Below are positions 3,345 to 37,851 of a DNA stretch of 37,851 bases, in pieces. The notes beneath the pieces were generated by a model. That model was given only the letters and a program-made list of their open reading frames with translations, searched no databases and was not told the DNA's origin. Made by a program: the position numbers and the translations under genes. Every line of letters begins with the position of its first letter. Within the stretch, counting starts at the first letter, position 1. This stretch comes from Lophium mytilinum (taxonomy: Eukaryota), in assembly GCA_010093605.1 (NCBI GenBank), contig MU004184.1:2366801-2404651 (forward strand). The letters are read 5' to 3'.

Positions 3345-4100
3345 GCCAGCTTAGTGGCCACGGTACCCCTTACAGTGGTATCTACTAAGCAAAGCTCGAG
3401 TGGAGTGGTGATAGATTAGTGTGCCCAGCCATGCGGTCTATCATAATAGGAGGAAAGCGCAGTTTAAAGGTCGATATAGTGGATATTAGGCTAGCTTTTA
3501 GATAATTATATAGAAGCTATTGGGGTAGCCCTTACAGTGGTGTCTACTAAGCAAGACTAGAGCCGAGGAGTAATAGATCAGCGTGCCCAGCCATATTGCC
3601 CTATATTATAGTAGGAAAATATAATATAAAGGTCCATATAGCAGATATTAGACTGCCTTCTAGGTGAGTGTATTGGAGTTATCGGGGCATCCCTTACAGT
3701 GGCGTCTAGTAAGAAAAATCTGAGCGAGGTAGGGATGAATTCGTGTTCCCGGAGAAAGAGGCCAGTACTGAAGAAGGAAAATGAACTGTAGATATCAACG
3801 CACTAGATACTAGGCTACCTTTAGAGGAATGCATACATGCTAGCCAGGCCACCCCTCACAGTAACATTCAGTGAGCAAGCGCGGACTAAACAGTGACAGA
3901 TTCCGTATGCTCAGAAATATGGTCTGGTACTGTAATAGAAACACGGCGTAGGGGTCGATGCTGTGGATATTGGGCTACCTCTTAGAAGATTGCATACATG
4001 CTACCTGGGCCACCCCTGACAGTGGTCTCTAGTAAGCAAGACTCGAGCCAAGCAGTAACAGATTCGCCTATCTAGACATATTGTCTATTACCGTAGTAGT
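3345..4100. repeat. Degenerate tandem array of about 162-bp units (about 4.5 copies)
   Basis: The anchor CCCT(T/C/G)ACAGT(GG/AA) recurs at 3367, 3529, 3691, 3853 and 4014, giving spacings of 162, 162, 162 and 161. Internal blocks are shared, such as TCTA(C/G)TAAG(C/A)AA and GATA(T/C)T(A/G)GGCTA. Confidence 0.92.
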
Positions 4101-4279
4101 CTTATAGCTCTCCATATTCACCGGTGATAGCACTCCGTCGATTGCCGCAAAGCCTTTAATCGCCGCCGCACTTGCATTTCCATCCGCGAGCTCCAGCCAC
4201 TCCACTAATTGATGTTGCGAGCGTTTGCGTCTCCATCTTGCTATCACCACCATCTTCGAGATCGCCGGTATTGCAAAAC

Positions 4280-6060
4280 ATGGCGTCAAATGCTCCCCAC
4301 ACCGAAGACCATCTTGATCCGCGATCCTTGTATCGCTTCCAGACAACTCGCGATGTCTGGGCTTTCGAGCTCCTGTCCTGTGAGAAACTAGTCACTAGGC
4401 TTGTAAAGGTGCCCATCTTATGCGATAGATTGGAAGATAGAGGAGATACCACCCCGGCCACGGCGGAGGAGAAGAGGGAGATAAAGAGGCAACTAGAAGA
4501 GTTGTGGGACGAGATGGCTGAAGTCGCTCGCTCAGGATCCGTAAGTTAATATCGCGCCATCCATTAAAACTTATTTTTAGCTCTTTTAGGCCCTACTCGA
4601 GCATGCGAAGTCGTTCCTCGATTATCCCTTTAACGGCGTTGATCCTAAAGTGAACCCACTGGGACCGTTCACACAATCCGACCCAGAAATCGCACGCCAC
4701 ACTCCCACCCCGGTCGCCAGTTATTCTCCCCGATACCCCACAGTAGTTCGAGATCCAAATGGTACCTTCGTCGAGCTACGTTGCTACATGTGCGATGGCA
4801 ATGCGACAGCCTCCCGAACCCGCCGTCGCGCGCAGTTTCTCAGAGGCGTGGGCGGGTTTCAGAACCACCTCCACCAAGGCCACAACATTCGGCTGAGCCC
4901 ACAGATGACCCTGGTAAAGTGTACCGTAGGCTGGCTTTTACCGAGACAGGTCCAAGCTCTCCATGACGAAACTCCTAACGCTCCTCAAATCGAGAAGGTC
5001 GAGTGCCCACCCGCGTCTAATGCTCACGTCGAGGGTGTTTCCGACCGATTAAGCTCCCCAGTCTCTAGCGAAGTTGTGGATGATGCTGTAAATGGTATCA
5101 GTAGTCTTCTAAAGACCGGTGGAAAGCGTGGTAGGTCGCAGACTGCTTCTCCCGAAAGCGAACCCGTACGCCAACAGATCACCGAAGCACATCATGTTGA
5201 TACTGCTCCAACCGCGGCCGCTACAAGGACACGCCCGCCCGTATTAGGTGGAAGCGCCTCGAGTCCTCTCGTACCCGCCACAACTACCGCAACTACTGGT
5301 GCTTCTGCTATTCGCCCTAGTTCTACCAAAACGAAAACTGCTGCTAAGACAGTACCATCCACGAAGACTCTCTGGAAAGCCAGCGACCACCCGGCGCCGC
5401 AACGCTCGCCGATAGCCCCAGTTTGGTCACCCGTTTCTGTTCCGTCGCCCCTTCGCGTGGATGATAATCCCGAGCTAGACCTTGGCGCTCATGGCCTCGT
5501 TCATAACTCCTATAATGATGACGAGGACGAGAGTACTCATACTCCCGCAAGCTCTCGTAGAGGTATATTGAAGCGTTCGCTGCGCGCGGAGAGGCCGGGC
5601 CCGTCCAAACGAGTCAAATTCGGGCCTCGTCTTGTAGAGTACGAGCCAGGCTCACCGCCGCCCCAGCACCAAGACCCCCCCCTCAGCGAGCGTGCCAAAA
5701 TGGAGATGCAGCACTGGGCGCCGGTCGTGAAGCTCCATGACGGAACCTACGTGAGCATCCAATGCATGGAATGTTCGAGGGATGAGATCCGGTACATTCC
5801 AGCTGGCCTAGAGATGTTGCGAAGCCACTGTCGCCGTCGGCATGAAGCCACCAGATGGTGGCTGTCTCGCGCAAATTGGCGAAATGCCCTGATTGACGCC
5901 TGCGCGGGCAATGAGGTCTCGGAGAGAGAGATGCGTTTGATGTGGATGAATGGCCAGGGTCACTATGACGGTATGTAGGCACAGTCAAACGTGCTCTGAT
6001 AGATTACTAATGTACGATACAGACGCGTCCGAGGCTGAGAACTCCGAGGCAGAGGATTAG
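4280..6060 (+). CDS. 559-aa protein with two AHC1-like C2H2 zinc fingers separated by a Ser/Thr/Pro-rich linker; join(4280..4540,4590..5970,6023..6060)
   Basis: Introns 4541-4589 (GTAAGT..TTTTAG) and 5971-6022 (GTATGT..TACTAAT..ACAG) join ORFs 4172..4549 and 4650..5978 in frame to TAG at 6060. Fingers: YPTVVRDPNGTFVELRCYMC..GFQNHLHQGH (4734-4883) and WAPVVKLHDGTYVSIQCMEC..LRSHCRRRH (5715-5843). Confidence 0.8.
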
Positions 6061-6170
6061 GGACACGGGGATGAGGATTAGCGGTACGACTGAGGCTGTT
6101 TATATGGCTCTCAATAGATAACAATGGACTCTCATACTCTGAATGCTTCGCTCCACTTTTGCTCTTTCAA

Positions 6171-6257
6171 CACCACTGCAAGGGGTGGCCCGGGAGCACT
6201 TATGCAGCTATCCAAAAGGTAGCCTAACATCTACAGTGTCGACCTTTGTGATGTGTC
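6171..6257 (-). repeat. Inverted partial copy of the 162-bp repeat unit
   Basis: The reverse complement reads ..AAAGGTCGACACTGTAGATGTTAGGCTACCTTTTGGATAGCTGCATAAGTGCTCCCGGGCCACCCCTTGCAGTGGTG. This is colinear with array segments at about 3466-3542 and 3950-4026. Confidence 0.85.
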
Positions 6258-6396
6258 CCTAAGTTCGTCCTTTGTGATGTGTCTCTAGATTCGTTGGAAA
6301 GGAGCCTCTATATGGTAATATATAGAGAGTTTCAGCAAACTCCCGGGCACGTAGGTAAGAACGGTAGCAATAAAACGAAACAGAGAGGCTACCGCG

Positions 6397-6604
6397 TACA
6401 GCTTAAGGTAGGGCTATACGTACGGCCTCACGTAGAGTCTCTCCTATGCGGCCTTTCTTATACGGCCTTGAGGCCCCGCCAGCTCAGAATGCAGCTCGCG
6501 AGGCAGCGCGCAAGGCCACTGATACGGCAATACGTACGGCCTCGCATATGGCATCACGTACAGCTATATATAGCAACATGTAAAGCGTTACCTACGGCCA
6601 TCAA
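6397..6604. repeat. Degenerate 12-bp minisatellite (consensus about TACGGCNNYACG)
   Basis: Units include TACAGCTTAAGG, TAGGGCTATACG and TACGGCCTCACG (6397-6432), then TACGGCAATACG, TACGGCCTCGCA, TATGGCATCACG and TACAGCTATATA (6523-6570), and TACGGCCATCAA (6593). Confidence 0.65.
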
Positions 6605-7945: not shown

Positions 7946-8311
7946 GACCCGCAACCACGGAACCGTGATGATCCACCCACGTTTGGGAAAGAGGAGACTT
8001 CAGGAACCATGATTCGAGTTAGAGCGGACCATGAGTGTATAAAATCTCGACAGGCCTTACGTTTCTTCCCGCACATCTTTCAGAACTATTTCTTCTGCTT
8101 AGACCACGCTTTTACTCTTGCGTTTTACAACCGCCCCAAAAGCATTCGCCTTCTTAAAGGCCCCGTCTGTCGCTTTACTTATCGCTTTACTTGATACAGA
8201 ATCGGCTCCTGGTGCTTTCTGCTTCTTTTCCCACTCAAGTAGTTACGCTCGCTACACCCTGCCTCGCGTCGTCTTGAATATCTTTCAAAAAAGTGCAAGT
8301 CCATCGTCCCG

Positions 8312-11300
8312 ATGGATCACCAGTCATCAACACCCGAGCATGCACCCCAAGAGGCACGACTTGTGGAAAATGCATCCCAAGCACCCCAGTTGGCTTCAGC
8401 AGTCGCCTCGCTCGACGTGCCAACAGTCACGAACCCATACATCGGACCACCACCCACGAACCCATACATCGGACCACCAGCCACGAACCCAGCCATCGCA
8501 GCACCAGACGCAAACTCATCGAATTCCAACCCAAACCCCGAACCTATAGCGCTTGTTGAACCAGTCCAATATATTAAAGGAGCCGAAGCCCCGATGACTC
8601 GGGGCGAAGAAAAGAATGGAGATACGCGCATTGAGAAGGAAAAGGAAAAGGCCGCGACGTACGAACTAGCGCACGTACGCAAAGATGAAGAAGCCGCCCA
8701 GAGCGTTGCCGAACCCAAGCAGCAGATTCCAAAGATGGACGATGGATACTACGGAGTGAACCAGTTCTATAATGAGGCTAGGTGGTCAGAGGCGGAACTG
8801 GGGCCTCAGCCATGGAACAAAACGGCAGAATTTCCCAGTCGTGCCCTTTCACTTCGTGATGCGATGCCCGACCACACTCGTCTAGAGGAAGAGACCATGG
8901 AAGCGCGGCGCGAGAGCGACGTCGCCTTATCGCCCCCGATCGCTCGCACGCCAGAGGTCCCGCCGCCGATTGCTCGCACGCCAGAAGTATCGTTGCCGAT
9001 TGCTCGCACACCAGAGGTACCGCCGCCGACTGAGAATGCCGCAGCAAACATGGACTTTGAACCTACGAGTAGTGAAGATCCCCCTCCTAACACTTCAACG
9101 ACAACTCCGGAGACTCTCGACTCCGAGGACCCTGTCGACCCCGAGATTCTCCGCAAACGTTCGTTGCTCGTCCCGTACCCTGGCGAGCCCACTCCTCTCG
9201 TGACACCGATATACATCCAGGGCCTAACTTCCATAGCCAGGAAGGAGAAGGACACGTTGGAGAAAATGGTAGCGGCTGAATGGGAAGCGCTGCAACGGAG
9301 CACGAAAGGTTCGGATGGGGAAGCTAAAGCCGTGAAGCAGCTTGCGACATGGTCGCGGACCTTGACTCTTAACGAGGAACGAGAGAACCGTTCTCCGGCG
9401 AAGACGGCGGCAAAGACGCCCAAGGAGGACGATGCGAAAGGGGAGGCGGCCAAAAAAGAGGAAAAGGCGCATCGTTTTTCAGCCGGTCTCGCTTATGCGG
9501 AGATGCCCCATATGCCCCAGGAGCTCCAAGGACTGATCAAACCCATGGATATCATGAAAATTGCCAGTCTTGCGGAAGACAAGAAGGAGGGACACAAAAA
9601 GGTTGTCGCTGAGCAGTGGTATTGCCTCGCAGCCTACCCAAAAGACTCCCCGGAATACATCTTAGCTCACGAAACGCTCACCAAATGTACAAAAGTCTTT
9701 GCACAATTGTACCAAGAGGGGATGCAGCAGAACACTATCCAGGAAGCATCGAAGGCTCCACAGGAATTGACCTTGATTCCAACTGGTCAGTCTAGCACAG
9801 ATGCGAACAGTGCAACAGACCTCAGCATCTACGGCGTCATCCGACCCGAAGAAATCCTTAACCTCCCACTTTCCGATGCAACAAAGGGCCACTACCATGC
9901 CAAGGCTTCCACTCTCTGGAACACGCTCCAGACTGCTCAGAAAGACACGCGGACGTTTGAGCTGGCCTACAAGAATTATGCCCAACTGTCGTGGAAAGTT
10001 AGGCAAATCGCGCGCGAGCGTCAAGTCCAGCCGCCGGCACCGCAGCCTATTCAAGACGAGCAGGAAACACAGGGAGCAGCCGGGTTTCCGGCATTCCAAG
10101 GGGCTTATAGAGCATATCCATCAGTGGAACCTTGGAATAATAATTATTTGCCTGTTCCGTCAGCAATGTCGTCGCTTCAGCCTTTCCAGACAGGCACCTG
10201 GACTGGGTTCAACAAGAAGACTCAGAATCTGAATCAGGCTACCGCGATGGACTATTTCGGCGCATCGTATCCAGCATACAATCAGGCCAGTTCTTACCCG
10301 GCCGCTACGGCCAGCTCTTACCAACCCGGCGGCCTTGTGGCGTGTTCGTGCCCGCAGTGCACTGCACAGCAACTGCCGACGTATCAGAACACTCTTACCG
10401 CATCCACGACATTCCCAGTTGCTATCGGGATGCCGGCTATCGCGCAGAATGGGATTCCGCAGCAGGTGCAGGCGATGAGCGCGTCCCAGCCTGTTGCAGC
10501 GCCTGCACCCGCAGCAGAACCTAAGCAGGAGATGAGCCCTGGCCAGGAGTTGATGGTGGGGGCGGAGCAAACCACTACCCGGGAGTCCGAAACGGATGAG
10601 AAGTCGACCACCACCCAGGACACCGAGGCGAAATTTGCCAAAGACGTCGCCACCATCCTCAGCCGCTACCCGGAACCCAAAGACCTAGCGGAGCTTCTCG
10701 TCAGGTCAGAGAATGACTTTCACTCTTTCAAGAAAGATAGCGTGAAAGCCTGCACTACCCTCACTGGGCTCTTGCAGGCGAAGGACAAAGTAATCGAGGC
10801 ACTCAAAGCCCAAGAGACTGATTCGGTATCGGCCGATTACCTGGAAACCGAGCGCGAGCTTGCTAACGCTAGGAAGAATATGCAAGAATTGCAGGCTGAT
10901 GTTCATCGCGTGCGTGAGGCTAAAGAAATCTTCCGGACTCGGTTCAAGGAGTGGCAAACGAAGCTAGAGAGCGCCGAACCCGCGGATAACGAGCCGGACC
11001 CCAAAGATGCCGGAGAAGAAGAACGCATGGACGACCAAGAGCGTGCGCAAGATCCACAAGACTTCCCCTTCCTATTGAAGACGGAGAACGAGAGCCAATG
11101 TGAGGAGATCGCCGACCTGCGTTCTGCAAACGAAGCGCTTGAAGCCGCGGCACGGAAAGTTTCCTCGGGATGCGAGAACTGCGTAAGATCCGCCGCCGAG
11201 CGTGAAACCGACCGCGAAAAGCTGAAGACCATGGGAGTTAAGAGCGCGGCATTGGAGAAGGAGATGGAGGTCGCATCCGAGAAATACAAGTTGTATAAAC

Positions 11301-13192
11301 ATCACTATGTCTCGCTCAGGCTCCGCTGTATCGCAGCCGCCAAGGACACCAAGGCTAGTAAGATATTGGCGGGCGAGAACGAGCAGCTCAAGAAAGCTCT
11401 CAAAGAAGGGGGCATAGCATACGATAGCCTTTCCGAACAGTTGGCCGAATTGAAGACTGTCCAGACCGACTTGGAGGAGTTGAGAAAATCCTACGACAAG
11501 ACGTTTGTCGAGTTGAAGACCACCCAAACGGCTTTAGACGAGCTAAAGAAAGCGTCCGCCCAAGCGACGATCGATTTGGATTCCGCCCGTAGGGAAGCCG
11601 GAAGACTTCAGGTTGCTCATGAAGAGGGTCAAGCTAAGCTGGCGTTCTTAGAGACTGAGGGTGAACGTACTCGGGAGAAGTTGCGCCAAGAACAAAGCAG
11701 GTTGGCCGCGATTGAGACAGAGAGACGCAAGCTTGTGGATGAGCTCAAAGAACTAAGCGACGATTCCGACAATCTCACAGCCGACCTGGACCTGGCCAAC
11801 GAGCGATTTTTGCAGCAAGGGAGCAATCTCAACGCCGTTGTCTATCACAACGCTAGACTGGCCGACGCGAAGAATGAGCTGGAGACACGTTTCAACAAGG
11901 TCAAGATGGAGCTGGAATCAGCATATTCGCAGCTTGCCCAGCAAAAAGACTGTCTGGACTTGACCGAGAAGGAGAAGCAGGATCTTGCGGCCGAGAATGA
12001 GCAACTGACAGCCAATACCATCAACCTAGAGAAACAGCTTCACGAACAAGGAGCCAAGATATCTTCCATCCTGAGTAGAAATGATGTCTTGAGCGCCGAG
12101 AAATCACAGCTCAGCAACGATCTCATGGTCATGAGTGCCAAGTACAAGGAAGTCGGTGAGAAGGTTTGCTACCACCAAGACAAACTCACCTTATCGGAGC
12201 AGAAGAACGCCGAGAACGATCAGCTTATCAAGCACCTCGCCATGGAACGCGAGCATAGCGCGAGGGAGGTCGACAACTTGAGCATGCATGTTGGAGTGGC
12301 CGAGAAAGCGATTGGCCGGCTTGAGACCGAGAATGAGCAACTTCGAGACGACCATGAACTCCTCCAGGTCGAGTACAAGAGACAGAGCGAAACCATGCAA
12401 AATCAAGCCAACTGTATAACCCAACAGGCGGGTGTTATTCAAAAGCAAAAGGAATTTCGGCAGCAGAGCGAAGACCAACTCGAGAGCTTCCAGCGTATGA
12501 GCGATCAGGTTTCCAAGCTCGACAAGACGATCCTGGACCTGGTGGCCGAGAATAAGAATTTAAACGACAAATACAAGGACGCGTGCGAACGCTTCACTGC
12601 GAATTGCCAAGAGAAAGCGAATCAGATAGCCGAAGTCGCGAGATACAGAGATCTTTTGGCGGTTGAACTTGAAGAACTTGAAGCTAAATTGGCAGATGAG
12701 ATCTCTTCGAGACACTTGGCGGAATCCGAGTTCACGAGGGTGCTTGGCGCTTTAGACGATGAGCACCAGAAAAACCACGCGCTGGAGGTTCTGATCGAAT
12801 CTCTCCAAACTTCGCTAGATGGCTCGGCGGAGAACAGTCAAAAGGCTGAATCTTGCGATGAGGCTGCTGAGATTGACGACGAGGCTGCTGAAATAGAGGC
12901 CGAGGCCGCCGAGGTCGAGGATGAGGTCTCCGAGGTCGAGGTCTCCGAGGTCGAGGATGAGGCCGCCGAGGAAGAGGATGAGGCCGCCGAGGAAGAGGAT
13001 GAGGCCGCCGAGGAAGAGGATGAGGCCGCCGAGGAAGAGGATGAGGCCGCCGAGGAAGAGGATGAGGTTTCCGAGGTCGAGGATGAGGTCTCCGAGGTCG
13101 AGGATGAGGTCTCCGAGGTCGAGGATGAAGATTGGGTGCAGCTCTCAGCGGAAGATCAGCAGCATCCGGTGTACACTGACTGGCGTCCCTAG
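8312..13192 (+). CDS. 1626-aa single-exon protein: Pro-rich N-terminus, three ~56-aa TAF12-N-terminus-like helical repeats, Q/A-rich segment, ~700-aa coiled coil and acidic repeat tail
   Basis: An uninterrupted 4.9-kb ORF. Repeats lie at 9197-9364, 9533-9700 and 9836-10000, and a heptad-like E/K/L/Q-rich region spans about 10700-12820. No catalytic motif was recognised. Confidence 0.9.
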   Translation: MDHQSSTPEHAPQEARLVENASQAPQLASAVASLDVPTVTNPYIGPPPTNPYIGPPATNPAIAAPDANSSNSNPNPEPIALVEPVQYIKGAEAPMTRGEEKNGDTRIEKEKEKAATYELAHVRKDEEAAQSVAEPKQQIPKMDDGYYGVNQFYNEARWSEAELGPQPWNKTAEFPSRALSLRDAMPDHTRLEEETMEARRESDVALSPPIARTPEVPPPIARTPEVSLPIARTPEVPPPTENAAANMDFEPTSSEDPPPNTSTTTPETLDSEDPVDPEILRKRSLLVPYPGEPTPLVTPIYIQGLTSIARKEKDTLEKMVAAEWEALQRSTKGSDGEAKAVKQLATWSRTLTLNEERENRSPAKTAAKTPKEDDAKGEAAKKEEKAHRFSAGLAYAEMPHMPQELQGLIKPMDIMKIASLAEDKKEGHKKVVAEQWYCLAAYPKDSPEYILAHETLTKCTKVFAQLYQEGMQQNTIQEASKAPQELTLIPTGQSSTDANSATDLSIYGVIRPEEILNLPLSDATKGHYHAKASTLWNTLQTAQKDTRTFELAYKNYAQLSWKVRQIARERQVQPPAPQPIQDEQETQGAAGFPAFQGAYRAYPSVEPWNNNYLPVPSAMSSLQPFQTGTWTGFNKKTQNLNQATAMDYFGASYPAYNQASSYPAATASSYQPGGLVACSCPQCTAQQLPTYQNTLTASTTFPVAIGMPAIAQNGIPQQVQAMSASQPVAAPAPAAEPKQEMSPGQELMVGAEQTTTRESETDEKSTTTQDTEAKFAKDVATILSRYPEPKDLAELLVRSENDFHSFKKDSVKACTTLTGLLQAKDKVIEALKAQETDSVSADYLETERELANARKNMQELQADVHRVREAKEIFRTRFKEWQTKLESAEPADNEPDPKDAGEEERMDDQERAQDPQDFPFLLKTENESQCEEIADLRSANEALEAAARKVSSGCENCVRSAAERETDREKLKTMGVKSAALEKEMEVASEKYKLYKHHYVSLRLRCIAAAKDTKASKILAGENEQLKKALKEGGIAYDSLSEQLAELKTVQTDLEELRKSYDKTFVELKTTQTALDELKKASAQATIDLDSARREAGRLQVAHEEGQAKLAFLETEGERTREKLRQEQSRLAAIETERRKLVDELKELSDDSDNLTADLDLANERFLQQGSNLNAVVYHNARLADAKNELETRFNKVKMELESAYSQLAQQKDCLDLTEKEKQDLAAENEQLTANTINLEKQLHEQGAKISSILSRNDVLSAEKSQLSNDLMVMSAKYKEVGEKVCYHQDKLTLSEQKNAENDQLIKHLAMEREHSAREVDNLSMHVGVAEKAIGRLETENEQLRDDHELLQVEYKRQSETMQNQANCITQQAGVIQKQKEFRQQSEDQLESFQRMSDQVSKLDKTILDLVAENKNLNDKYKDACERFTANCQEKANQIAEVARYRDLLAVELEELEAKLADEISSRHLAESEFTRVLGALDDEHQKNHALEVLIESLQTSLDGSAENSQKAESCDEAAEIDDEAAEIEAEAAEVEDEVSEVEVSEVEDEAAEEEDEAAEEEDEAAEEEDEAAEEEDEAAEEEDEVSEVEDEVSEVEDEVSEVEDEDWVQLSAEDQQHPVYTDWRP
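8429..9030 (+). repeat. Two coding minisatellites: 27-bp (TNPYIGPPx) x~3 and 30-bp (xPIARTPEVx) x3
   Basis: ACGAACCCATACATCGGACCACC repeats over about 8430-8500, and CCGAT(C/T)GCTCGCAC(G/A)CCAGA repeats over about 8935-9025. Confidence 0.85.
12857..13132 (+). repeat. 21-bp coding tandem repeat encoding acidic heptapeptides (EDEAAEE / EDEVSEV)
   Basis: GAGGATGAGGCCGCCGAGGAA occurs in five near-perfect copies, flanked by GAGGATGAGGTCTCCGAGGTC copies. Confidence 0.95.
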
Positions 13193-14299: not shown

Positions 14300-14501
14300 G
14301 GTTGCGCCAATTGAAAGTGTGGACCTTGGGAGAGATTTGAGGTTCATGAGATGATCTTGGTGTTGAGGTTTGGGCACCGGAGTTTGGCGGAATTTTGGAG
14401 GCTTGGCGCCAGTTACTAATCGGGATCCTCGACGACATCCCGTTTCTCTGCTATACTTTCTTTTTTCACAATCCGCTTCAAAATTGATCTTTGTAGCTAT
14501 C
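14300..14501. promoter_or_regulatory. Compact bidirectional promoter region between ILM1 and the dipeptidase
   Basis: The divergent start codons at 14299 (-) and 14502 (+) are separated by only 202 bp. Confidence 0.6.
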
Positions 14502-16110
14502 ATGTCGCTTGACACTAAAGGGGAAGGCAATTCGCCTTTCCTTCATCGAAAAAGCCACCGTTCGACTATCAAGTTCATTGTTGTACCACTTGTTTTGATA
14601 TCATCATGGATGCTTCTCTCCTTCTTCAGTCCATCTCAATTGTTTCAGCACTGCCGCAATCAGATGCACAAAGCTCATCCGTTGACAATTGAGCAACGGG
14701 CTATGAAGATTCTGAACGAAAATCCTCTAATCGGTCAGTCATAATCTCAGGTCGATTCGGCCTGGGATCTACGCTGATGGATCGCAGACGGCCATAATGA
14801 TCTCGCAATTCTCGTTCGATTTGCGTATGGAAACCACATCTACACGGACAAGTTCAAGAAGGGCTTTGAAGAAGGCGGATTGATGGGTCACGTGGATATC
14901 CCGAGGCTTGATAAGGGCAAGGTTGGTGGCAGTTTCTGGAGCGTGTTTGTGCAATGCCCCGCCAACATCACGGATTTCTCGGATGAGAACTATGCTGGGC
15001 GTGAGTTGTTCCTATTTCTTAGCTTTCGATCTCCATTTCATTGCGTGCTTTTGTCATCATTTCAATACCTTTATCCACTTGTATCCTCTTTTTTCTACCA
15101 CCAAACCTCTCCGCCCCTGCCGTATTTACCCTCCATCTTCTCGTATCGAGCCGCCGCTAAACTCTCTAGCTATCCGCCAAACCCTCGAGCAACTCGACGT
15201 CTACCGCCGCCTCGGCGCCGCCTACCCAAAATACTTCACGCCCACCCCCTCATACGCCGCCGCCCTCTCCGCCTTCTCCTCCGGCCACCTAATCTCCCCC
15301 GCCGGCATCGAAGGCCTCCACCAAATCGGCAACTCCCTCTCCACCCTCCGCCTCTACCACTCCCTCGGCGTGCGCTACGCCACCCTAACCTGGAACTGCC
15401 ACAACGCCTACGCCGACGCCGCCGTCCTCACCACCCCCAACGCCACCTACAAATCAACCCCCCTCTGGCACGGCCTCAGCACGGCCGGCCGCACCCTCGT
15501 CACCGAAATGAACCGCCTCGGCATGCTCGTCGACCTCTCCCACGTCTCCGCCGACACGATGCGCGACGCGCTCATCGGCCGCGACGGCTGGAACGGCAGT
15601 CTCGCGCCGCCCATCTTCAGCCACAGCTCCGCGTACGCCATCTGCCCGCACCCGCGCAACGTACCAGACGACGTGCTGCAGCTCGTGAAAAAGCGGAACT
15701 CGCTCGTTATGGTGAATTTCAGCCCGGATTTCATCTCGTGCGTGCCGAGCGATTCGTGGACGGGGCTGCCGGAGCTTTATAAGCCGAATGTGACGATGGG
15801 GCAGGTGGTGAGGCATATTCGGCATATTGGGGAGCTTATTGGATATGAGCATGTGGGGTTTGGGAGTGATTTTGATGGGATCCAGACGACGCCGGAGGGG
15901 TTGGATGATGTGTCGAAGTATCCGGATCTGGTGGCGGAGTTGCTGAGGCAGGGGGTGAGTGATGGGGATGTGGCGAAGGTTGTGGGCAGGAATCTGTTGA
16001 GGGTGTGGAAGGAGGCGGATGAGGTGGCGAAGAGGTTGCAGGCGGAGATGGAGCCGTTGGAGGATGAGATCAAAACTGGGTGGACGGGACTGAGCGGTGA
16101 GGAGCTATAA
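14502..16110 (+). CDS. Membrane dipeptidase (peptidase M19 / renal dipeptidase family) with N-terminal TM anchor, 461 aa; join(14502..14733,14788..15000,15170..16110)
   Basis: Motifs PLIDGHNDL, GHVDIPRL, GIEGLHQIGNS, TLTWNCHN, EMNRLGMLVDLSH, IFSHSS, HPRNVPDD and GSDFDG. Introns 14734-14787 and 15001-15169 restore the frame. Confidence 0.95.
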
Positions 16111-16431
16111 GATCCTGATGATTTCATTCTCTCCAAGCGGGACATAAGAGGAGTGCGGATTTCCGAGTCTGTACGAAATTTACATGTATATAGAGCTTGC
16201 TGTCGCATTACTCTACTGTTTCTGGGTAAGGCGCAGGAACTTTGACATTCGAGGAGTCTGGTAATTTCCCAAGTCCTATCGTTTGGGAGTCTGTCGACCA
16301 ATATTCCTGTCAGGTACGCTTTTGATGTTTTTCGGAGAGGGATCTCACTCATTCATTTCCGTGCTATTCAGCTAACTACAGCTTTGGTATAGTCAGGGAG
16401 AGGGGAATGGGGAGAAGGCGAGAGAGGGACA

Positions 16432-19400
16432 TCAGCCCTGAAACACCCACTCCTCATCATCGAGCTCCGCCCATCTCCCCAATGCCGGCGTCGTGGGCTC
16501 AGGATCCTTTGGTGCACCTTGATCAATCTCCTTACCACCTCCAATACCGTCAACGGGGCTCCCACTCTCCTCCCCGCCATTCGCAACCCCATCTTTTTGC
16601 TCGCCATGATCACTTCCTTCGCCACTCGCAACACCCTCCTCCTTCGCCTCCCACACCTCCTCCTCCCTCTCCCAGTCCTCTGCCACCTCAACTTCCTTCT
16701 TCCCCGCTAGCCCACTCTTCCGCGCCAACACCGTAAAGCGGCCGCTACCAAGTCCACTACCCGCTTTGCTGCCATACCCACCACTCACAGCACCCAATCT
16801 AGCAGCGCCACCAGCACGCCCGCCTCTCGCAGCAACCTGGCTCCACCCGGCGCCCGGTCCCGCATCCGCCTCCCTCCTATGCACATTGAGGCTAGAATCC
16901 AGGCGGACGAGCTGCAAGCTGCCCAGGCCGTGAGAATTGACGACTTTGAGCAGCGCGGGTTTAAGCGCCGTCAGTGCCGCTTCGACCTCGCGCTCCGAGT
17001 TTGTAAAAGCCGGGAGCGACGGCGTTAACGCAACCTCTTCACTGGGTAAGAACGCGATATCAAACTGCATCTTGTGCGGCTCGACTTCTGCGCGAATCGT
17101 AGCGCGGAGTTCTTCGATCGTGAGACCGAAGCGCGGGCTGGAGAGGAGGTAGCCGTTGTAGGGCTCCCCGAGTAAGTTACTCTTCTTCAAGCCAGAAGAG
17201 GCCGCGGGAGGCGGCGCGGTGTTAGCGGTCGAGACGCCTAGCGTGCGTTGGGTCTGGCGGATGCGGGCGCATTCCGCGAGGGTCTTCATAGGCGCGGTGA
17301 CGAAACGGGGAGTTTTGAAGATGGCGACGTGGCGGTGCGGCTCCGGGTCCACGCTCTCGCTATCGAAACCGAAGTCTTCGGCCAAAGCGTGTAGGAAAGC
17401 GCGGTAGGAGGAGGGCATGGGTTTGAACCGAAGCCTCCGCTCAGCCGGGTCAGCAGCAAAGAGGCGGAAGTCTTTTTCTTGCGCGGAGGCCCACTGGACG
17501 TTGTCTTGGTACAGTTTAAGCGTTTCGGTGGAGTACGGCACATGGTCGTCTGCGTGCGTAGCTTGATCGATATTCAACGCGAGCGCGAGTTTGCGGTTAC
17601 GCTCGAGGCGAGCGCATTCGTCGTCGCATTTGAGAGATTTGGTAATGTTGCCCTCGGAAGTTTTAGAGGCGCCGCATTTGGTCTCTTGCTTTATACGCTG
17701 GCAGTCGCACGTGACGAAGATTTTGTGCTGGCAAGGCCGGTCTTCTTTGCACGGATACGGGGAGTGACAGGGTGCCAGACAGGCGTGGCCGCATGTGGGA
17801 AGCTCTTTGCCGCAAGATTGTTGGCAGGGTTCTTCGCACTCGCCTGGGGTGTGGCATTGCTTTTGGCACCTGGTAAAGGTTAGCAGGCTGTATATGAGTG
17901 AAATTGCCTTGCGATAGATCTGTGTACACCCTTCTGACACCCTCTGAGAGGACCTCGCGAGTTTCCAAGTATTTCAAAGCAATGAAATCCCGCGTGTCTA
18001 GATCTTCCAAATGCATCGAGAATCTTCAGGCGTTGGTGGACAAGCGCACGCAAGTCGTTCCGCCTGATGATTACCCGTGCTTTCTAGATTCCGGAAAAGG
18101 CATCGAGGTCATCCAAAGACTGCAAACGAGTATAGGCAGATCTTTGTAGTGACGAGCTTCTACCTCTTCCAGATCTCGGACATTGCATTGAAGGACCTCA
18201 GACAGCGACAGATCGGTGTACACAGACCCATAGCGAGAGCAAAAATAGAACTTACTTGTGCGCACCACACCTCAACTTCCTCCCACAAACCTCTCCACAG
18301 CGTGCCTCCGTCCGCCAGCACGGCTGATTCCTCATAGTGTTCTTTCCACAAAGGCACGTCTTGGTCGTCAAAAACGGACATTTCGGGCACTCTTCCTCAT
18401 CTTGGTGACAATTGTGCGTAACCTGCTGGTGTCCACACGCCTTCGGCCTCTCACACTGCCACCGACAAGGGGGCGGCTTCGTGCCGCAAGGCAACGGAGG
18501 GTGTAGAGTAGTTTTGCCACAACTGCAGGAAACTTCGTCAAAGATGGCTTCGCGACACGATTCGCAGGGGCCTTTGTGACAGAGCTGCTGACAGCGATGC
18601 AACGGGTTTCCGCACTTCAAGGCTCGGTCGCAGGTCCGGGTGCAGATATGTTCGGCTTCAAAGCCATCATCGGGCCTACCTGCTGCATGAAGGGCACGAA
18701 GCTTGCGCTTACTAGCCTGACGGTCGGCTGCTTTACGCTCGCCTGGGCAGCAACGCTCTCCACACTCATGGCGACCACAATTTAAAGTGACGCGGCACAC
18801 GCGCATGCACTGGGGAGCCTCTTCGGTGCCTTGATGACAGATGGTGGACGAAGTGGTGCGGCCACATCGGCAGATGATGGAGACTTTTTGGAGGCAAGGC
18901 CTGCACTCCTCCTGATGGCAGAGTTGAACGCAAGCGTGATCGCAGGGCAGCGTTTTGCCGCAAGGCTCTGTGCAATTAGGTATCGGATCCTCACACGTCT
19001 GTCGGATCTTGGCTGATATTTCCTCTAGTGGCGTTTTACCACAAGGGCAACGTGAAACAACATCCGGTGATCGAGGGCAATGCGTCGGCTCGGCATCCTG
19101 TCTATGACACGGCTTGGAGCACGAGTGCTTTCCGCAGTCGAAGTCTCGGTCGCAATTATTCGAACATCCAAAGATTCCAGTCCACTCCGCCAACACCTTC
19201 GTTCCATCTTCAGCAATGTGCGATCGAGCGCTCTTCTCCTTCCAACCCTGCTCACAGCACATTATATCTTTCTCTACCTGCCCACAGTAACAGCGAGCGG
19301 GAACGCGGACTTCACACGCTCCGCAAGGCCCTTCGTGGCATGGTCTATCGCAAATGTGCTCACCACAGGGCATAAGTTCCCCGCAAGGCTCACCACAGCT

Positions 19401-20477
19401 CCATCCTGATTCGTAATTCGTATCAACACATCGCTTCGTAGACGTCTTCTTTTTGCAAAAGCAAGTCTGAGTGGGTCCCATATGGGCACATGGAGGGCAA
19501 GGCCCGCTATGACATATGTTCGGGCAAGGATGAGGGCATTTCTTCAACAGTCGTTGTCTCGCACAAGTTTGACCGCAAGAAAAGGGCGGGGTTCCAGGAA
19601 GGGGTCTCGGATCTACCTCTTTCTCGCACCAACATGTGAACATCTTCGGCATGTCATCCTTTGGAAGGTTGCAGCCAGGGCATCTCCATTGCCGCGGTGG
19701 AGGCATTTCACCGTCCTGGGCTTCGCGGCGCGCAGCAGCAGAGCCTTCGTTGGTAGACCACTTCTTGATACAGCTCAGATGGAAAACAGTCCAGCACGTT
19801 CGGCACGACCACACGCGCGAATTTCTCCGCACGTCTTCGGTACAAATCGCGCACTCATAGTGGCCATTGTCAATATCCTCGTGCGTTCTCGTTGAGATAT
19901 CCGGCGCTTGTGATTTTGACATCCGACGCCTTCGGGGCAAGTTCTTCGCTCGACCCGAATGGGGCTGGCCAGGTCGGAATTCAGGCGCATCGGCTTGCAA
20001 TCCTGAGGCTTTAGACCGACCAGTGGGGTTCCCCTGGTCCGCGGATTCCTGCGTCAAATCGCCACCGAATTGACGACGTCCGCCAGCTGCCATGCGAGAC
20101 TGGTCTCCGCCTCTCCCTCTGCCTGCATTATGATTGTCGCCTCTGGCCCGACCTTGAGGACCCCCGCGACCTCCTCTTCCTCTTCGCGATGGTCCGTGAT
20201 TCTCGCTAGTAGAAGCCTCCGCGATAGAAGGTTCGCCGGGCGCAGGTTGGGATGGAGGAGCTACAGTCGCTGGGGTCAAAGCTGTGCCTCCACGGCCGCG
20301 TTGGGGTCCGCCTCGACCCCTCCTGCCTCCCCGCTGTGGTTGTCCATTCTCGGGCTGGTCAGGAGCCTGCGACGGTGGGTTTCGGTTCTTCGGTCGTCGT
20401 CGTCTTGGGGGTGGCTGGTCCGTAGGCCCGGTTGGTAGCTGTCCTGGAGGAGGTCCTGCAGCTGGAGTTGCGGACAT
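16432..20477 (-). CDS. FAP1: FKBP12-associated protein 1 / NFX1-type protein (RING, NF-X1 zinc fingers, R3H), 1219 aa; complement(join(16432..17869,18256..20477))
   Basis: RING motif YECAIC..WSCRTCWTVFHLSCIKKW..WRCPGC, many CGxHxCxxxCHxGxC NF-X1 repeats, and R3H motif RFKPM..RAFLHALAEDFGFDSESVDPEPHRHV. Intron 17870-18255 (GTAAGT..GCTAAC..CCAG) joins CGAHK|CQKQCH. Confidence 0.95.
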
Positions 20478-21118
20478 GCTCTGATGGATATGGGCTATGG
20501 CGCTGGCCCCGTGGGTTTCCAGCGTGCACGAAGTGGGGAGTCTTCGGGTCTTTTGGTTTCGAGGAATCGGATGAGGCGCCCTTGACAGTGGCAAGAGATT
20601 GTAGGCAGTAAGAACTCTGGAATCTCAAGAAGTTTGCTGGAATTAGTTGGAGGGGCAAACCCGGATGCTTCGTAAGGAATTTGACGAAGGAACTCGCTCA
20701 GGCACCAATAAATATGGCCTGGTGAACGGTAAAGAAAGGAAGCTGGTGGGGAGGGAGTGAGTTAGTGGCGAGCAAATGTTCTTGTAGTCGTAGAGAATAT
20801 TTGGCCACGGACAGCAAGCGACGCTAGCATGCAAGCACAGCCTGCCTGAGGACTCAGAGCAGGCGCCGTCACTATGACTCACGCCCGTGTCTGCAGGATT
20901 CGTCCGCTTGTACAAACACCAAATCCGAGGTCGTGCAGGATTGAGAGGGAATGGTAGCTGCGTGAATGCTGGATGTCTATAGTTCTTCGGTGTTGACTCG
21001 GCGGGCGCGAGAGGCGTCATTAATTCGGAGCTTCGGCGAAGGTGTTGTTCCACCAGCTTGGCACCTTGGTCTTCATCAAGCTCGCCCTCATCCATCACCC
21101 CCATCACGATACCCAGAC

Positions 21119-22237
21119 ATGGCATTGCGATCACTTGGGGCACTCGCTCTCGCATCTGCATCCGCAGTCTCCGCCTTCCAGAACACGTCCCCTTTCTTTC
21201 TCTTCTCCACCTCCGAGTAGGCCGCCCAGAGCTCCTCCGTAGGCCTCAAGCTAATTACTTCTTCCAGCCGACTCCAGCTCTTTGATAACGCCAACTCCCA
21301 GCTTCTCAGCGCGAATGCCCTCAATACATATCTCAAGCAGTCCCTCGCGGAATGTGCGCCATCGGGAACATCCGAGACCTACATCGTTGTCCACCAAGCT
21401 GGCGCCTCCACCTCCGACTACCAGGACGACAAATCCGCGCCCTATCTCTCCGGGTGGCTAGACGGAAGCGATCCCCAAATCAAACAGAAGATAGTCGTGC
21501 CAGAAGTCGTGGGTCGGACCTATCCTCTAATAGAGACCGTTCAGACAACCCTCAATGAATGCGGAGGGACAGCGGAATGGTTAAATCACAGTAGGGGCTG
21601 TTTTTCCGATCTGCTCTGACGCTGAAGCTAATAATCGTCTGCAGAGAACGTGACAGATAATACTGGAAAGTCGTATGCAGGAAGGGTTCGCGAGGGCCCT
21701 CAAATCATCACAATTTCGTATCCTGCCCTCTCAGCACAAAACTCCGCTGATAAGCTCGCGGAGCACGGTTGGTTTCCTCAGCAGCCAATTTGAGGATTAG
21801 AGCTAATTTCTACCTAGATGCACTGCTTTCCGACTTCATCCACAACTACATGAAAGACGAGCAGTGGACTGTTATATATGTGACGACGCCAAGAGATGCG
21901 CCTGAGGAACTGGCGACACAGGCATACGAGATGGACGAGCCTTTCCCCGACAACGTCAACATCGAGCTAAAGCGAGACGTCGACAGCCATGAGAAAGAAA
22001 GGGTGTTGGAGGGTGGTCTTTTCGAGAAATACATGTTCCTTTCTCCAGGTACGTTCCACCTCCCATGTCTCACAAATCCTAGCTAATGCGAACCTGCTAG
22101 GTCTCTTCATGGGCCTTACCGCCGCTGTTCCTCTCTTCCTCATCCTATACGTCGGCATCTCCGCTCTCACTAGCCTCGAAGTGTCATACTTTGCTTTTAG
22201 CAAAGAGATGGGTCCGGTAGCGCAGAAGAAGCAATAG
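21119..22237 (+). CDS. BIG1 / V-ATPase accessory (Ac45/Voa1)-like type I ER membrane protein, 303 aa; join(21119..21216,21268..21590,21645..21767,21818..22048,22101..22237)
   Basis: A signal peptide is followed by FQNTSPFFLFST, with C..TYIVVHQAG internally and a C-terminal GGLFEKYMFLSPGLFMG-TM-LEVSYFAFSKEMGPVAQKKQ. Four introns with GCTAAT branch points all preserve the frame. Confidence 0.88.
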
Positions 22238-33521: not shown

Positions 33522-36500
33522 TGTAGGAACGCTTTTCTATATAGATCTAGTATAATTAAGGCCTATACAGGCCTCTCTAATATATATATAGCCTAGCTAG
33601 ATTTCTATATAGAATTAATATCTATTATCCTCTAAATTCTTATATTATATAATTAGAAATATTATATCTAGTAGCTTAGTTATAGTTCTAGCTACCTCTA
33701 AAGCCTTCTTAGAGGGCTATTAAGTTCTTAAACTTAATAGTATAGAGCTAGCTAAGGCTATATTCTTATAATTAACCCTTAGTAATAATAAAAGATATTA
33801 GCTTCTATAATTAGTAGAATTTTTAGATTATTATAATAATACTAAGCTGTATTAATAGTTTCTAAAAATTAACCTAATTAGTAATTAATAACAACTATTA
33901 ATAATAGCCTCTAATTAGTATTAGGCTAGTATTATAGTATAACTACCTATTATAAATATTCTTATAAAAATTAAATAGTATAGGTTTAAAGAGCTCTTAG
34001 CTAGAATATTACTATAGAATTTTTCTATTCCTTTTAATACTTCTATATAACTAACTACGCATTCTATTAGCTACTAAAGTAAGATTAATAGTAGAATAGT
34101 AAGAAGAATAATATTATAGCTTAATAGAGCCTAATAATTATATAGTAATTAGAAATCCTTATAAGTTAATTATAAGAAGAAGGCGGAGAAGTTCTTTTAA
34201 GAATCCTCCCTCTCTAATAGAATATTAAAAAGTATTTAAGTAAGAAACTTAATATTACTATCTTAGCACCTTTTTTTTACTCTTTACTTTAATTATATTA
34301 TAGTTATTAACTCTTTTCTACTCTTTCTTATTCTTAGATATTTTATAACCCTTAGCTTTCTTTTATATTTAGTAATAGATATTATTATTTTAATAGATTA
34401 CCTTCTAACCTTTAAGAACTCTTCTAAAGGCTCTTTTAGTTTAGTACTATATTTTATAATCTATTTAATCTAATATTAGCCTTATAGACTAAGTAGGCCG
34501 CTACTCTAGAATTTATTAAGCTACTAGTTTAAGATTCTCTAATTATTTATAGTAGTACTCTAGCCTATAATCTAGGGCTTACCTATTAAGGGCTATTATT
34601 TACACCTTCTTTAAATAGCTATTAATACTTCTAAGCCCCTATAATAGAGTATATAATAAATTACTAGAAACTAGAACTCTTTAGTTTTATATTAGCTTCT
34701 TTTATATAATAGTAGTAGGCTACTATACTAGAATAGCTATAAGCTATAGTCTCTAAGTACTATACCCGCGTTAAGAATGTATTAGATAACTTCTAGCAGT
34801 AGCCTACTTCTTAGAGTACTACTAACTTCTAGAGTCTACTATCTAATACTTTTTTAGATTATCTAATACTAGACTATAATAAGCCTTTATTAGAATAAAC
34901 TATATAAGAGCTTTAATAAGCCTTTAAAAGAATATTAGCTATAAGAGAACCTTATTTAATAGTGCTATTTAAAGTTTTTATAAGAACTCCCGCTATATAG
35001 TTAGGTAAAGTTAATAATAATATATACTCTATCTAGATAATTTAAATATATAACTTTATTACTATATAAGCGGACGCCTATTAATAGGTTTACTAGTAGA
35101 TACTAGAAACTTAAAAAATTTAGCTAGCCGGTAGCTATATAGCTAGAACTGTAGCTATTTAATAGAACTAAGATATTTAATAGTACTACTAAGATAATAC
35201 TAAGTTTACTATATTAGATTAGTTTTTTACTACCTTTAGCCGCTACTATAAGAGTATAGATACACTAAAGTAATACTAACACCGCTTTAATAAAATAGTA
35301 TAGATAACTAGTACTTAATAGTTCTTTAATAAGCTTATTAAAGCTACTTATATATGCCCTCTTAATATAGCTCTATCTAATTTTAAGGTATATTAACGTG
35401 CCTGCGCAGGTTTAAAACCTAGCCTTAAGTTTTATATTAATACCTAAGCGTAGGCCCCTTCTAATTTTAATAAATAGATAGTGTAGGTTACTACTACTAA
35501 TAAGTATTAGATCTTCTAGTATAAGAGAATAAGAGACTATTAGGGCCGCCTTAATACTATCTCTAGGGCTAATAAAGAATTAGATAATAATTACTTCTAA
35601 GAAACTAATATTAATCCTAATAAATATAAATATCTAAATACTAAAGATAACGCTAAACTTAATGCCTTTAAAGGTAGAAATACTACTAGATCTTAAAAAC
35701 GCGGTTAAGGCTATAGCGGATATAGTAAAGGTACTACTTAATAGAATACTAATATGCGTAAGTACTATAATTATAGTAAGAAGGGCTATATTAAACGCAA
35801 CTATATTTAGCTAGCTAAGAAGCTATTAAAAAACTAGAAGGGTTAGTAGCCTTAAAGTAACTAACTAATCTAAAAGATAAGACTTCTACTTTTTATAAAC
35901 TTATAATAGAAAAGAATTAGCTGCCCTTTAATAATTCTTCTAACTAAATTATTATTAAATTAATAGAAGAAAGAATCTACTACCTTAACTTTCTAGGTAA
36001 ACGTCTTTTAGAATATAAGAGAACTTTAGAACTATCTAACTATTAGAAAAAAACTACCTTCTTAATTAATTATAGCGCTAATTCTATCTATATATTATTA
36101 AAGTATACTTAATATTAGCTAAGAAATATTAAAATAATAGCCCCTAAGGTAGTTAAACTTCTCTTAGGTATAACTATAATTAGTATAAAAGCCTTAGAGA
36201 TTCTATTTAAAATCTATATACTATTAGATACTCTAACTATGCATATTCTAGACCTTAAAGGGTATTAATGCATTCTTAGTATAACCTAGCTATAGTAATA
36301 CTAAGCTATTATTAACTTCTTTACTAATTCTATTACCTTATAAACGCAGGTTAGCCGCAACCTAAAGATTAAACTAGTAGCTTATTAGCTTAATATATTA
36401 AGCCCTATTATAGACCTTAGTCTCTCTAAACTAGAATACTAGGGTTTTATTAATATAATATCCTATTAGAAGTATAAGAGGCTCTTAGTAGATAAGCTTA

Positions 36501-37851
36501 ATTCTGCTTACCTTTATATTATAAAAGCTTCTAATAAACTAACGCCGGATTAGGTACTATAATCTAGTACTAATCCGCTATTAGAAGATAAGAATTTATT
36601 ACCCCTAATTAATTATATTACTACTTCTATATAAGAGAAGTTCTAAAAGCTTCTTAAAGAGTATAGACCTTATTTCTATAATATTCTTTCTAATATTTTA
36701 CCGCCTAAGTATAGATATAACTATCTAATTAATACTAGAGATATAAAGCTAGTAAATAATACTATATACCGCCTCTTATATTATTAAATAGAGAAATAGA
36801 CCTAATAAATCTATAAGCTACTAAAATAGGGCCTTATCTAAGAGTCTATTAGTGCCTAGAAATCTTTAGTTCTTTTTATTCTAAAGCTAAATAGTAAGTA
36901 GTAAATATATATTAACTATAGAGCACTTAATCTAGTAACCTAAAAGAATATCTACTCTCTACTATATATTAATAACTACCTATAGTTATTTAGAAAGGCT
37001 AGATTCTTTACTAAGATTAATTTAACCTCTAGATATTACTAGCTGCATATTTATTAATTAGACGTCTATAAGACTACTTTTAATATAATTAAAGAGAAAT
37101 TTAAATTTCTAGTTATACCTTTTAGCCTTTATAATGCTCCTGCTACCTTTTAAGCTATTATAAATAACACCTTATAACTATATCTATATTAATTTATACT
37201 TATCTATATAGATAATATTATAGTATTTTTAGAAATATTAGAAAAGTATCTTAACTACCTCTAATTATTATTTAAAGCTCTTAGAAAGAAATAACTATTT
37301 ACTAAAACTAATAAGTACTTAATTACTTAAGAAACTATTAAGTTCTATAGCTATATAGTTTCTTATAGAACTGTAAAACTAATAACTAATAAACTAGACG
37401 CTATTTAGTATTAGCCTATTTCTACTAATATCTATAAAGTCTAATAGTTTATTAGACTAGCAATATACTATTAAAAGTTTATTAAGAACTTTACCTATAT
37501 ATTAGTACCTCTCTATAAGCTTCTAAAGAAAAGCAACACTATAATATAAAAGAAAAAGTACTAAGCTATTATATAGAATGTTAGCTATTAAATTACTTTT
37601 AACTCCCTTAAGCAAAAGCTTATTAAATACCCTATGCTCGCCCTTATTAACTAGTTAAAGTCCTTTTAGATTAAAATAGACACTTCTAATTTTACTATTA
37701 AAATAGTCCTTCTCTAATAAGGAGAAGATAGTAAGTAGCACCCTATTATATTTAATAGTTAGAAGCTTAATAAAGCTAAATTAAACTATCTAGTTTATAA
37801 AAAAGAACTTCTAGTAATTAAAGAAGCGCTTAGAATTTAGTAATACTATAT
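33522..37851 (+). mobile_element. Heavily RIP-mutated Ty3/Gypsy LTR retrotransposon (protease-RT-RNase H), truncated by the window end; left boundary approximate
   Basis: There is an abrupt switch to AT-rich, TpA-saturated DNA with almost no CpA or TpG. Relic motifs: protease LINYSAN (LIDCGAN, 36062-36082), RT INYRALN (36911-36931), PFSLYNAPATF, YIDNI (YxDD, 37205-37216), RNase H IDTSNF (about 37676) and NYLVYKKELLVI. A candidate LTR start TGTAGG lies at 33522. Confidence 0.93.

Follow-up and report, generated by a model that had tools for sequence, protein, structure and literature searches.

Introduction

The TAF12 proteins of filamentous ascomycetes carry a single copy of an N-terminal module of about 60 aa, referred to here as TAF12-N, alongside a further helical module and a histone-fold domain. 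To our knowledge, the parts of housekeeping coactivators are not among the usual mobile domains. Domain shuffling is itself a known kind of event; neither TAF12-N as a donor domain nor its reuse was found in the literature searched.

In yeast, Taf12 has been reported to bind Ino2, Rap1 and Gal4 (PMC10716077, PMC4579351, PMC11377671), and the N-terminal regions of Taf4 and Taf12 have been placed near DNA in TFIID, where the region of the long fungal TAF12 N-terminal extension is seen solely as unassigned density (PMC6220335). The available portions of these four papers map no activity of yeast Taf12 to a TAF12-N homolog, and those of PMC8137143, PMC11370418, PMC5386856, PMC5576489 and PMC8080568 contain nothing on the module. 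A protein layout of interest for the present locus is that of budding yeast Ede1, an endocytic scaffold and selective-autophagy receptor in which three EH domains are followed by a prion-like region, a coiled coil and C-terminal Atg8-interacting motifs (AIMs) (10.1101/2020.05.26.116368).

Here, we analysed a window of 37,851 nucleotides from Lophium mytilinum. An original prediction had placed three repeats resembling the TAF12 N-terminus in a giant coiled-coil and acidic orphan protein, and had suggested a decoy or adaptor role.

Layout and conservation of the repeat-host protein

An open frame occupies 8243-13192 of the plus strand, and its first ATG (8312) opens a single-exon ORF of 1626 aa (P0001, 8312-13192). 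A single-sequence query of 1.84 billion representatives returned one ortholog, P0003 (1843 aa) from Mytilinidion resinicola, and none of the 295 and 235 pattern matches in metagenome contigs was confirmed as a further one. P0001 is thus not the orphan it had been taken for, since P0003 has the same three repeats. No Pfam family matches the repeats themselves.

The protein begins with a Pro/Ala/Glu-rich arm (aa 1-295, 8312-9196), probably disordered as judged from its composition, which contains two short tandem arrays (8420-8507 and 8931-9029) and is weakly conserved against the ortholog over its first 226 aa. The three predicted units, about 58 aa each, were all found, starting at aa 296, 408 and 509: R1 (aa 296-353, 9197-9370), R2 (aa 408-465, 9533-9706) and R3 (aa 509-565, 9836-10006), with 45%, 36% and 47% identity to the ortholog, respectively. 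They are followed by an Ala/Gln/Pro-rich low-complexity region (aa 566-765, 10007-10606) without a Pfam match; within this otherwise divergent region, the short motifs GTWTGFNKKT and CSCPxC are common to both orthologs. A long coiled coil of about 740 aa (aa ~766-1505, 10607-12826) comes next, recognised by its heptad enrichment and 39% identical to that of P0003; all its coiled-coil matches in Pfam were below threshold. No paralog that could have been the source gene of the Pro/Gln region or of this rod was found in the 43.4-Mb genome. An acidic tract (aa 1506-1604, 12827-13123), mostly missing from the ortholog, largely consists of a 21-nt tandem array of 11.1 copies (12902-13128). Both the coiled coil and the acidic tract of the original prediction are in place. 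A conserved C-terminal tail beginning with DEDWVQL (13124-13189) ends the protein.

Conservation is distributed unevenly along this layout. Identity to the ortholog was 36-47% in the repeats, 30-33% in the linkers and 38-50% in the rod; hence the repeats do not exceed the rod in conservation and exceed the linkers only slightly. The best-conserved block is the rod head (aa 766-835, 10607-10816; 69% identity), which includes the top 21-aa window with 19 of 21 residues identical, and the second most conserved window is formed by the last 21 residues (17/21, 81%). Conservation thus peaks outside the repeats, a point that the earlier reader had overlooked.

Transcription and neighbouring loci

Sequencing run X1 behaved as RNA, with seven joints having GT-AG ends on either strand and with 3500-6500 uncovered. 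One unspliced X1 contig spans 8061-12938, the contigs giving no strand. Just upstream of the ORF, a low-depth CT..AC joint at 7997-8061 marks a minus-strand intron without an evident coding frame, possibly from a divergent or antisense transcript. On the other side, the Ilm1 gene (PF10311, 13099-14400, minus strand) is convergent with the ORF, and its strongly covered transcript contig extends to 13099 and overlaps the final 94 bases of the ORF. Because of this minus-strand intron and the strongly covered convergent gene, antisense read-through across the ORF is possible, and the long conserved ORF is a stronger sign of a real gene than the X1 coverage. The ORF has no RIP-type skew (TpA/ApT 0.57).

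Elsewhere in the window, a 462-codon ORF at 4590-5978 (+) bears a CxxC...HxxxxH-like unit at each end and has neither a Pfam match nor X1 coverage. A membrane dipeptidase M19 gene (+) and an NF-X1/R3H gene (-) are convergent within 14485-21245, with a minus-strand intron (16290-16349) at the end of the contig bearing the dipeptidase exons. The block at 33600-37851, with a GC content of about 26%, is AT-rich; its dinucleotides are skewed in the manner of RIP (TpA/ApT 1.76), and it is probably a decayed repeat.

The repeats are homologous to the TAF12 N-terminus

A profile was built from TAF12 N-termini only, and the TAF12 set comprised 121 proteins (120 listed among 161 matches, plus P0005). 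The module was present as one copy in 119 of the 121, the two lacking it being short (444 and 487 aa), and none of the 119 had more than one copy. On this profile R1, R2 and R3 scored 30.9, 35.9 and 27.6 bits, compared with at least 58 bits for the TAF12s themselves. Among 302 decoys, either shuffled or reversed, the highest score was 6.4 bits, and the best non-copy in a six-frame translation of 229,023 aa reached 5.8 bits. When the three repeats were compared by HHalign to a set of 21 TAF12 modules, the result was 98.1% (E 1.3e-13).

The whole genome (43.4 Mb, 49 contigs) led to the same answer. When the repeat region was used as query, the top non-self match was the N-terminus of the fungus's own TAF12 (E 2.4e-8, 35% identity), as had been anticipated. 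In the reverse direction, all seven scored candidates for the 63-aa TAF12 module were module copies, R1-R3 included, with E-values of 5.4e-7 for R2 and 0.165 and 0.80 for the other two. R3 as whole-genome query retrieved a further copy on contig C2 as well as TAF12. Among the 119 TAF12 modules, the own one ranked first for R1, R2 and the C2 copy, second for the first of three copies on contig C12, and twelfth for R3. A further instance came from PDB 9ynu, whose TAF12 (chain I, 770 aa) has the module at residues 44-106 (E 1.8e-15). Taken together, profile scores, HHalign and genome search support homology of the repeats to the filamentous-ascomycete module.

The mutual likeness of the repeats was compared with 20,000 shuffles. 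It was exceeded in none for R1-R2, with p=0.0012 for R2-R3 and p=0.20 for R1-R3. Mutual homology is hence directly detectable in the first two pairs and undetectable in R1-R3 taken alone; each repeat is tied to the others because all of them match TAF12.

Homology in sequence is not accompanied by the rest of TAF12. The common ground, by sequence profile and predicted secondary structure, is the module of about 60 aa. TAF12 has one copy of it, a second helical module and a histone fold; P0001 has three diverged copies and neither of the other two parts, and adds the coiled coil and the acidic tail. The histone fold PF03847 is absent from P0001, in agreement with the original prediction that it is not TAF12 itself, and is likewise absent from P0003. 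The single PF03847 match in the genome is the own TAF12 (P0004) on contig C9. A TAF12 paralog or a split TAF12 was ruled out for want of the histone fold and the second helical module.

Over the N-termini of the scanned TAF12s, no Pfam family passed its cut-off. The Taf12s of yeast and Komagataella (6t9i, 6hqa) were not among the matches of the module profile at E<=10. With a full-length profile, Komagataella residues 70-110 came into register with the hairpin only inside a long low-complexity alignment. As the module profile misses these proteins, homology gives no ground for carrying the activator-binding data of yeast Taf12 over to the module.

It could be argued that the repeats are generic amphipathic hairpins which resemble TAF12 by chance. 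The fold is indeed simple, and the module profile weakly matches the repeats of protein A, at no more than 8 bits per domain. Convergence of this kind is nevertheless extremely improbable and was rejected, since the repeats stand far above the decoys on the profile, TAF12 is their top non-self match in a 43-Mb genome, HHalign agrees, and the copies are nearest to the TAF12 of their own lineage.

Predicted fold of the module

The TAF12 module, modelled from 108 sequences, reached a pLDDT of 88 with helices at 9-14, 20-39 and 45-74. For the repeat region, an AlphaFold model was made with the ortholog as the sole alignment input and no TAF12 (mean pLDDT 72, pTM 0.39). It displayed a short helix, a 20-residue helix and a long helix three times over, joined by low-confidence linkers; the helices of R1 were at 13-17, 24-43 and 49-73. 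Each repeat was thus modelled like the TAF12 module, that is, as a short helix followed by a helical hairpin. In view of the low-confidence linkers and the pTM, the repeats are, in the model, independently folding beads on a string.

Searches with the predicted structures brought no solved structure to the fore. Foldseek gave no match at E<=0.001. The best matches in the VIA fold search (Z 6.7 and 7.1) were generic hairpins, with no PAH, RST, TAFH, NCBD or HHD among those listed; Med15, KIX and hub domains were also missing from the listed fold matches, although such lists do not exclude them. In the ESM Atlas, the TAF12 module hit three unnamed clusters under 0.9, and no usable match was obtained for the repeats of the ortholog.

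Among described folds, the predicted hairpin of this domain from a transcriptional coactivator subunit recalls the alpha-alpha hubs, small helical domains in which an antiparallel H2-H3 hairpin is joined by a five-residue loop (PMC7948954). The gap between H2 and H3 is five residues in the TAF12 model, R1 and R2, and one residue in R3. The module differs from these hubs in that its loop has no large hydrophobic anchor (3% or less in any loop column of 119 TAF12s), its first helix has only 5-6 residues and a fourth helix is missing. According to the same source, the NCBD and HHD hubs also do without the large hydrophobic beta3 loop anchor of prototypical members. The protein A B domain and the GA module are likewise small tandem three-helix units at the end of a stalk, and share a weak local similarity. 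They belong to bacterial surface proteins, the protein A match covers only 21 residues, and, among 21 TAF12 modules, five gave a weak match to Pfam GA, with 5e-4 as the best E-value. We read this likeness as convergence.

Other copies of the module in the genome

At least seven stray copies of the module were found in three genes of this genome: three in the window ORF, one on C2 and three on C12. Seven is a lower bound, as the genome search scores the best candidates only. The C2 copy lies in a 314-codon ORF (L005:811-1755, C2 near 2247200-2248130, +) in which a domain of about 200 aa without a Pfam match precedes a C-terminal TAF12-N copy of 67.7 bits. This is the best-preserved copy, 52% identical to the own TAF12. 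The C12 copies form almost the whole of a 279-codon ORF (L006:988-1827, C12:1248550-1249386, -) and scored 42.0, 20.5 and 17.6 bits; this ORF adjoins a gene with two DUF7726 domains.

The front domain of the gene on C2 has four paralogs on C3 and C8 in which the module was not found, and thus the module was grafted onto this gene. The paralogs form two divergently oriented pairs (L026:1384-3182 on C3 and L029:1414-3209 on C8); one of them bears two CCHC zinc knuckles, and the shared domain is without a Pfam family. The second conserved helical module of filamentous-fungal TAF12 (aa 135-246, L002:3557-3892; no Pfam family over cut-off) served as control, and its whole-genome search gave TAF12 itself only (one of one candidate). 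TAF12-N is therefore mobile in this genome, with two further host genes that the earlier reader had overlooked.

Trees were built on a weak alignment of 61 columns, and IQ-TREE used 48 of the 129 modules. In the FastTree topology, R3 fell outside the main clades, in a position between them. IQ-TREE placed 8 of the 10 copies beside the own TAF12 and those of Pleosporales (aLRT 83), with both R1s pulled to a long branch. Two monophyly constraints went unrejected (AU p 0.15 and 0.56, from too few replicates). With such an alignment and neither constraint rejected, the trees are unable to count the captures.

Age of the capture and constraint on the repeats

The repeats pair by position with those of the ortholog (scores 111, 100 and 149) and align over their full length. 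The predicted triplication was thus confirmed in both P0001 and P0003, and is older than the split from Mytilinidion. Synonymous sites of the repeats against TAF12 were near saturation (pS 0.63-0.75), from which it follows that the capture is old.

Core hydrophobic positions were retained at 12/13 in R1, 10/13 in R2 and 12/13 in R3. When drift to the same identity was simulated, this retention had p=0.004, p=0.12 and p=0.0013, respectively, and 7 of the 8 copies tested were below 0.05, two partly aligned copies having been left out. The K, W and A positions were present in all eight simulated copies; a joint drift test including them is post hoc, these positions having been picked after the copies were seen, and is not leaned on here.

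These data bear on whether the repeats are mere passengers, i.e. pieces of the TAF12 5' end which were duplicated into genes and evolve near-neutrally within a tolerant disordered arm. The repeats do evolve at about the same rate as the remainder of P0001, R2 is the one copy that misses significance in the drift simulation, and their dN/dS against TAF12 (0.21-0.33, on about 40 synonymous sites) is not far under the value of about 0.5 that, by our own reasoning, would be expected with TAF12 alone constrained. Even so, this explanation is very unlikely, because cores are kept beyond drift in most copies, all three repeats persist at full length in both genera, and the capture is old.

Discussion

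The capture of a TAF12 N-terminal domain that no family lists, and its reuse at least seven times in three lineage-specific genes, is well supported. For the window ORF, we put at roughly 45% the reading that P0001 is a multivalent, lineage-specific adaptor made of three heads, a Pro/Gln region, a rod and an AIM-like tail. Its observed part is the homology, the triplication, the fold (in the model) and the retention of the core. In this fungal lineage, a three-helix domain of about 60 aa from the TAF12 N-terminus was captured, and it was already triplicated when the line split from that of Mytilinidion. The long coiled-coil protein now carries, at one of its ends, three heads that are joined by flexible linkers and, in the model, fold independently. 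The rod may dimerise and thereby present six heads, which would grip short helical or disordered partner peptides through avidity, in the manner of small helical hub domains. At the far end, the acidic W-V-Q-L tail would dock a second partner, most plausibly Atg8. We infer that TAF12-N is a protein-interaction module, and the ligands of the heads may be of the class bound by TAF12's own module, or drifted versions of it.

A different outcome of the same homology would be a nuclear decoy or competitor, the decoy being one option of the original prediction. Its repeats would resemble the TAF12 module enough to draw off the partners of that module, be they activators or subunits of SAGA/TFIID, and transcription would be adjusted in this way. 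True homology, the high rank of the own TAF12 and the kept K, W and A positions speak for it, as do the reported yeast Taf12 partners Ino2, Rap1 and Gal4, with the limit that no sequence link was found to the yeast activator-binding region. On the other hand, only four of the eight non-core residues conserved in TAF12 are present in each window repeat, compared with 6-8 in 92 of the 119 TAF12s, and the profile scores of the repeats are well below those of TAF12s. No classical nuclear localisation signal, mono- or bipartite, was found in the 1626-aa protein, which is a weak test as the own TAF12 has none either. With about half of the conserved non-core residues lost and no such signal found, the decoy proposal is weakened, and we regard it as unlikely on balance.

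It is also conceivable that only the fold was recycled and that the repeats took up a role outside transcription, as stable mini-domains that self-associate or that engage a partner of a lineage-specific structural rod, be it cytoskeletal, septal or in a membrane. The retained core with a drifting TAF12-specific surface would suit such a role, and so would the unrelated, lineage-specific nature of the hosts and the strongest constraint lying in the rod head and the tail rather than in the repeats. It should be pointed out, though, that three genes took TAF12-N and none took the neighbouring helical module, which suggests a ready-made useful activity, and that K26 and A53 in the numbering of the profile, which outside the core are the two positions best conserved in TAF12, remain in the copies. 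We consider this role somewhat doubtful.

The tail is the candidate second docking site of the proposed adaptor. DEDWVQL (DEEWVQL in the ortholog) follows the acidic tract, lies outside folded domains and fits the consensus W/F/Y-x-x-L/I/V with preceding acidic residues, as given in PMC4915120. The strict AIM pattern occurred in 1.4% of whole-protein shuffles; the motif is seen in no more than two sequences, which are related to each other. This genome has an Atg8 gene. Such an acidic-aromatic tail could just as well be a motif of the activation-domain type. In its order of three N-terminal binding modules, low-complexity region, coiled coil and putative C-terminal AIM, P0001 recalls the Ede1 layout described above. 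Neither an EH nor a UBA domain was found in P0001 by Pfam, and the likeness is one of layout, not of homology. In a more far-reaching reading, a repurposed coactivator domain would catch the cargo of an autophagy receptor: ligands of the TAF12 module (activator domains of transcription factors or unassembled SAGA/TFIID subunits) would be bound by the three heads, the rod would cluster these, and the DEDWVQL tail would pass the cargo to Atg8. That transcription regulators are degraded along a lineage-specific route built by such domain theft is an idea to which we give little credence.

The reach of these findings is narrow, covering two genera so far. They define a conserved domain of filamentous-fungal TAF12 that is without a Pfam family or a solved-fold match. 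They also provide a natural experiment in which TAF12-N travels, and in the model folds, as an independent unit, with at least seven copies in three unrelated genes. These copies are ready-made variants for probing the ligands of the extended N-terminus of fungal TAF12. Should the heads still bind ligands of the TAF12 type, P0001 would link transcription regulators with autophagy or with a scaffold in the cytoplasm.
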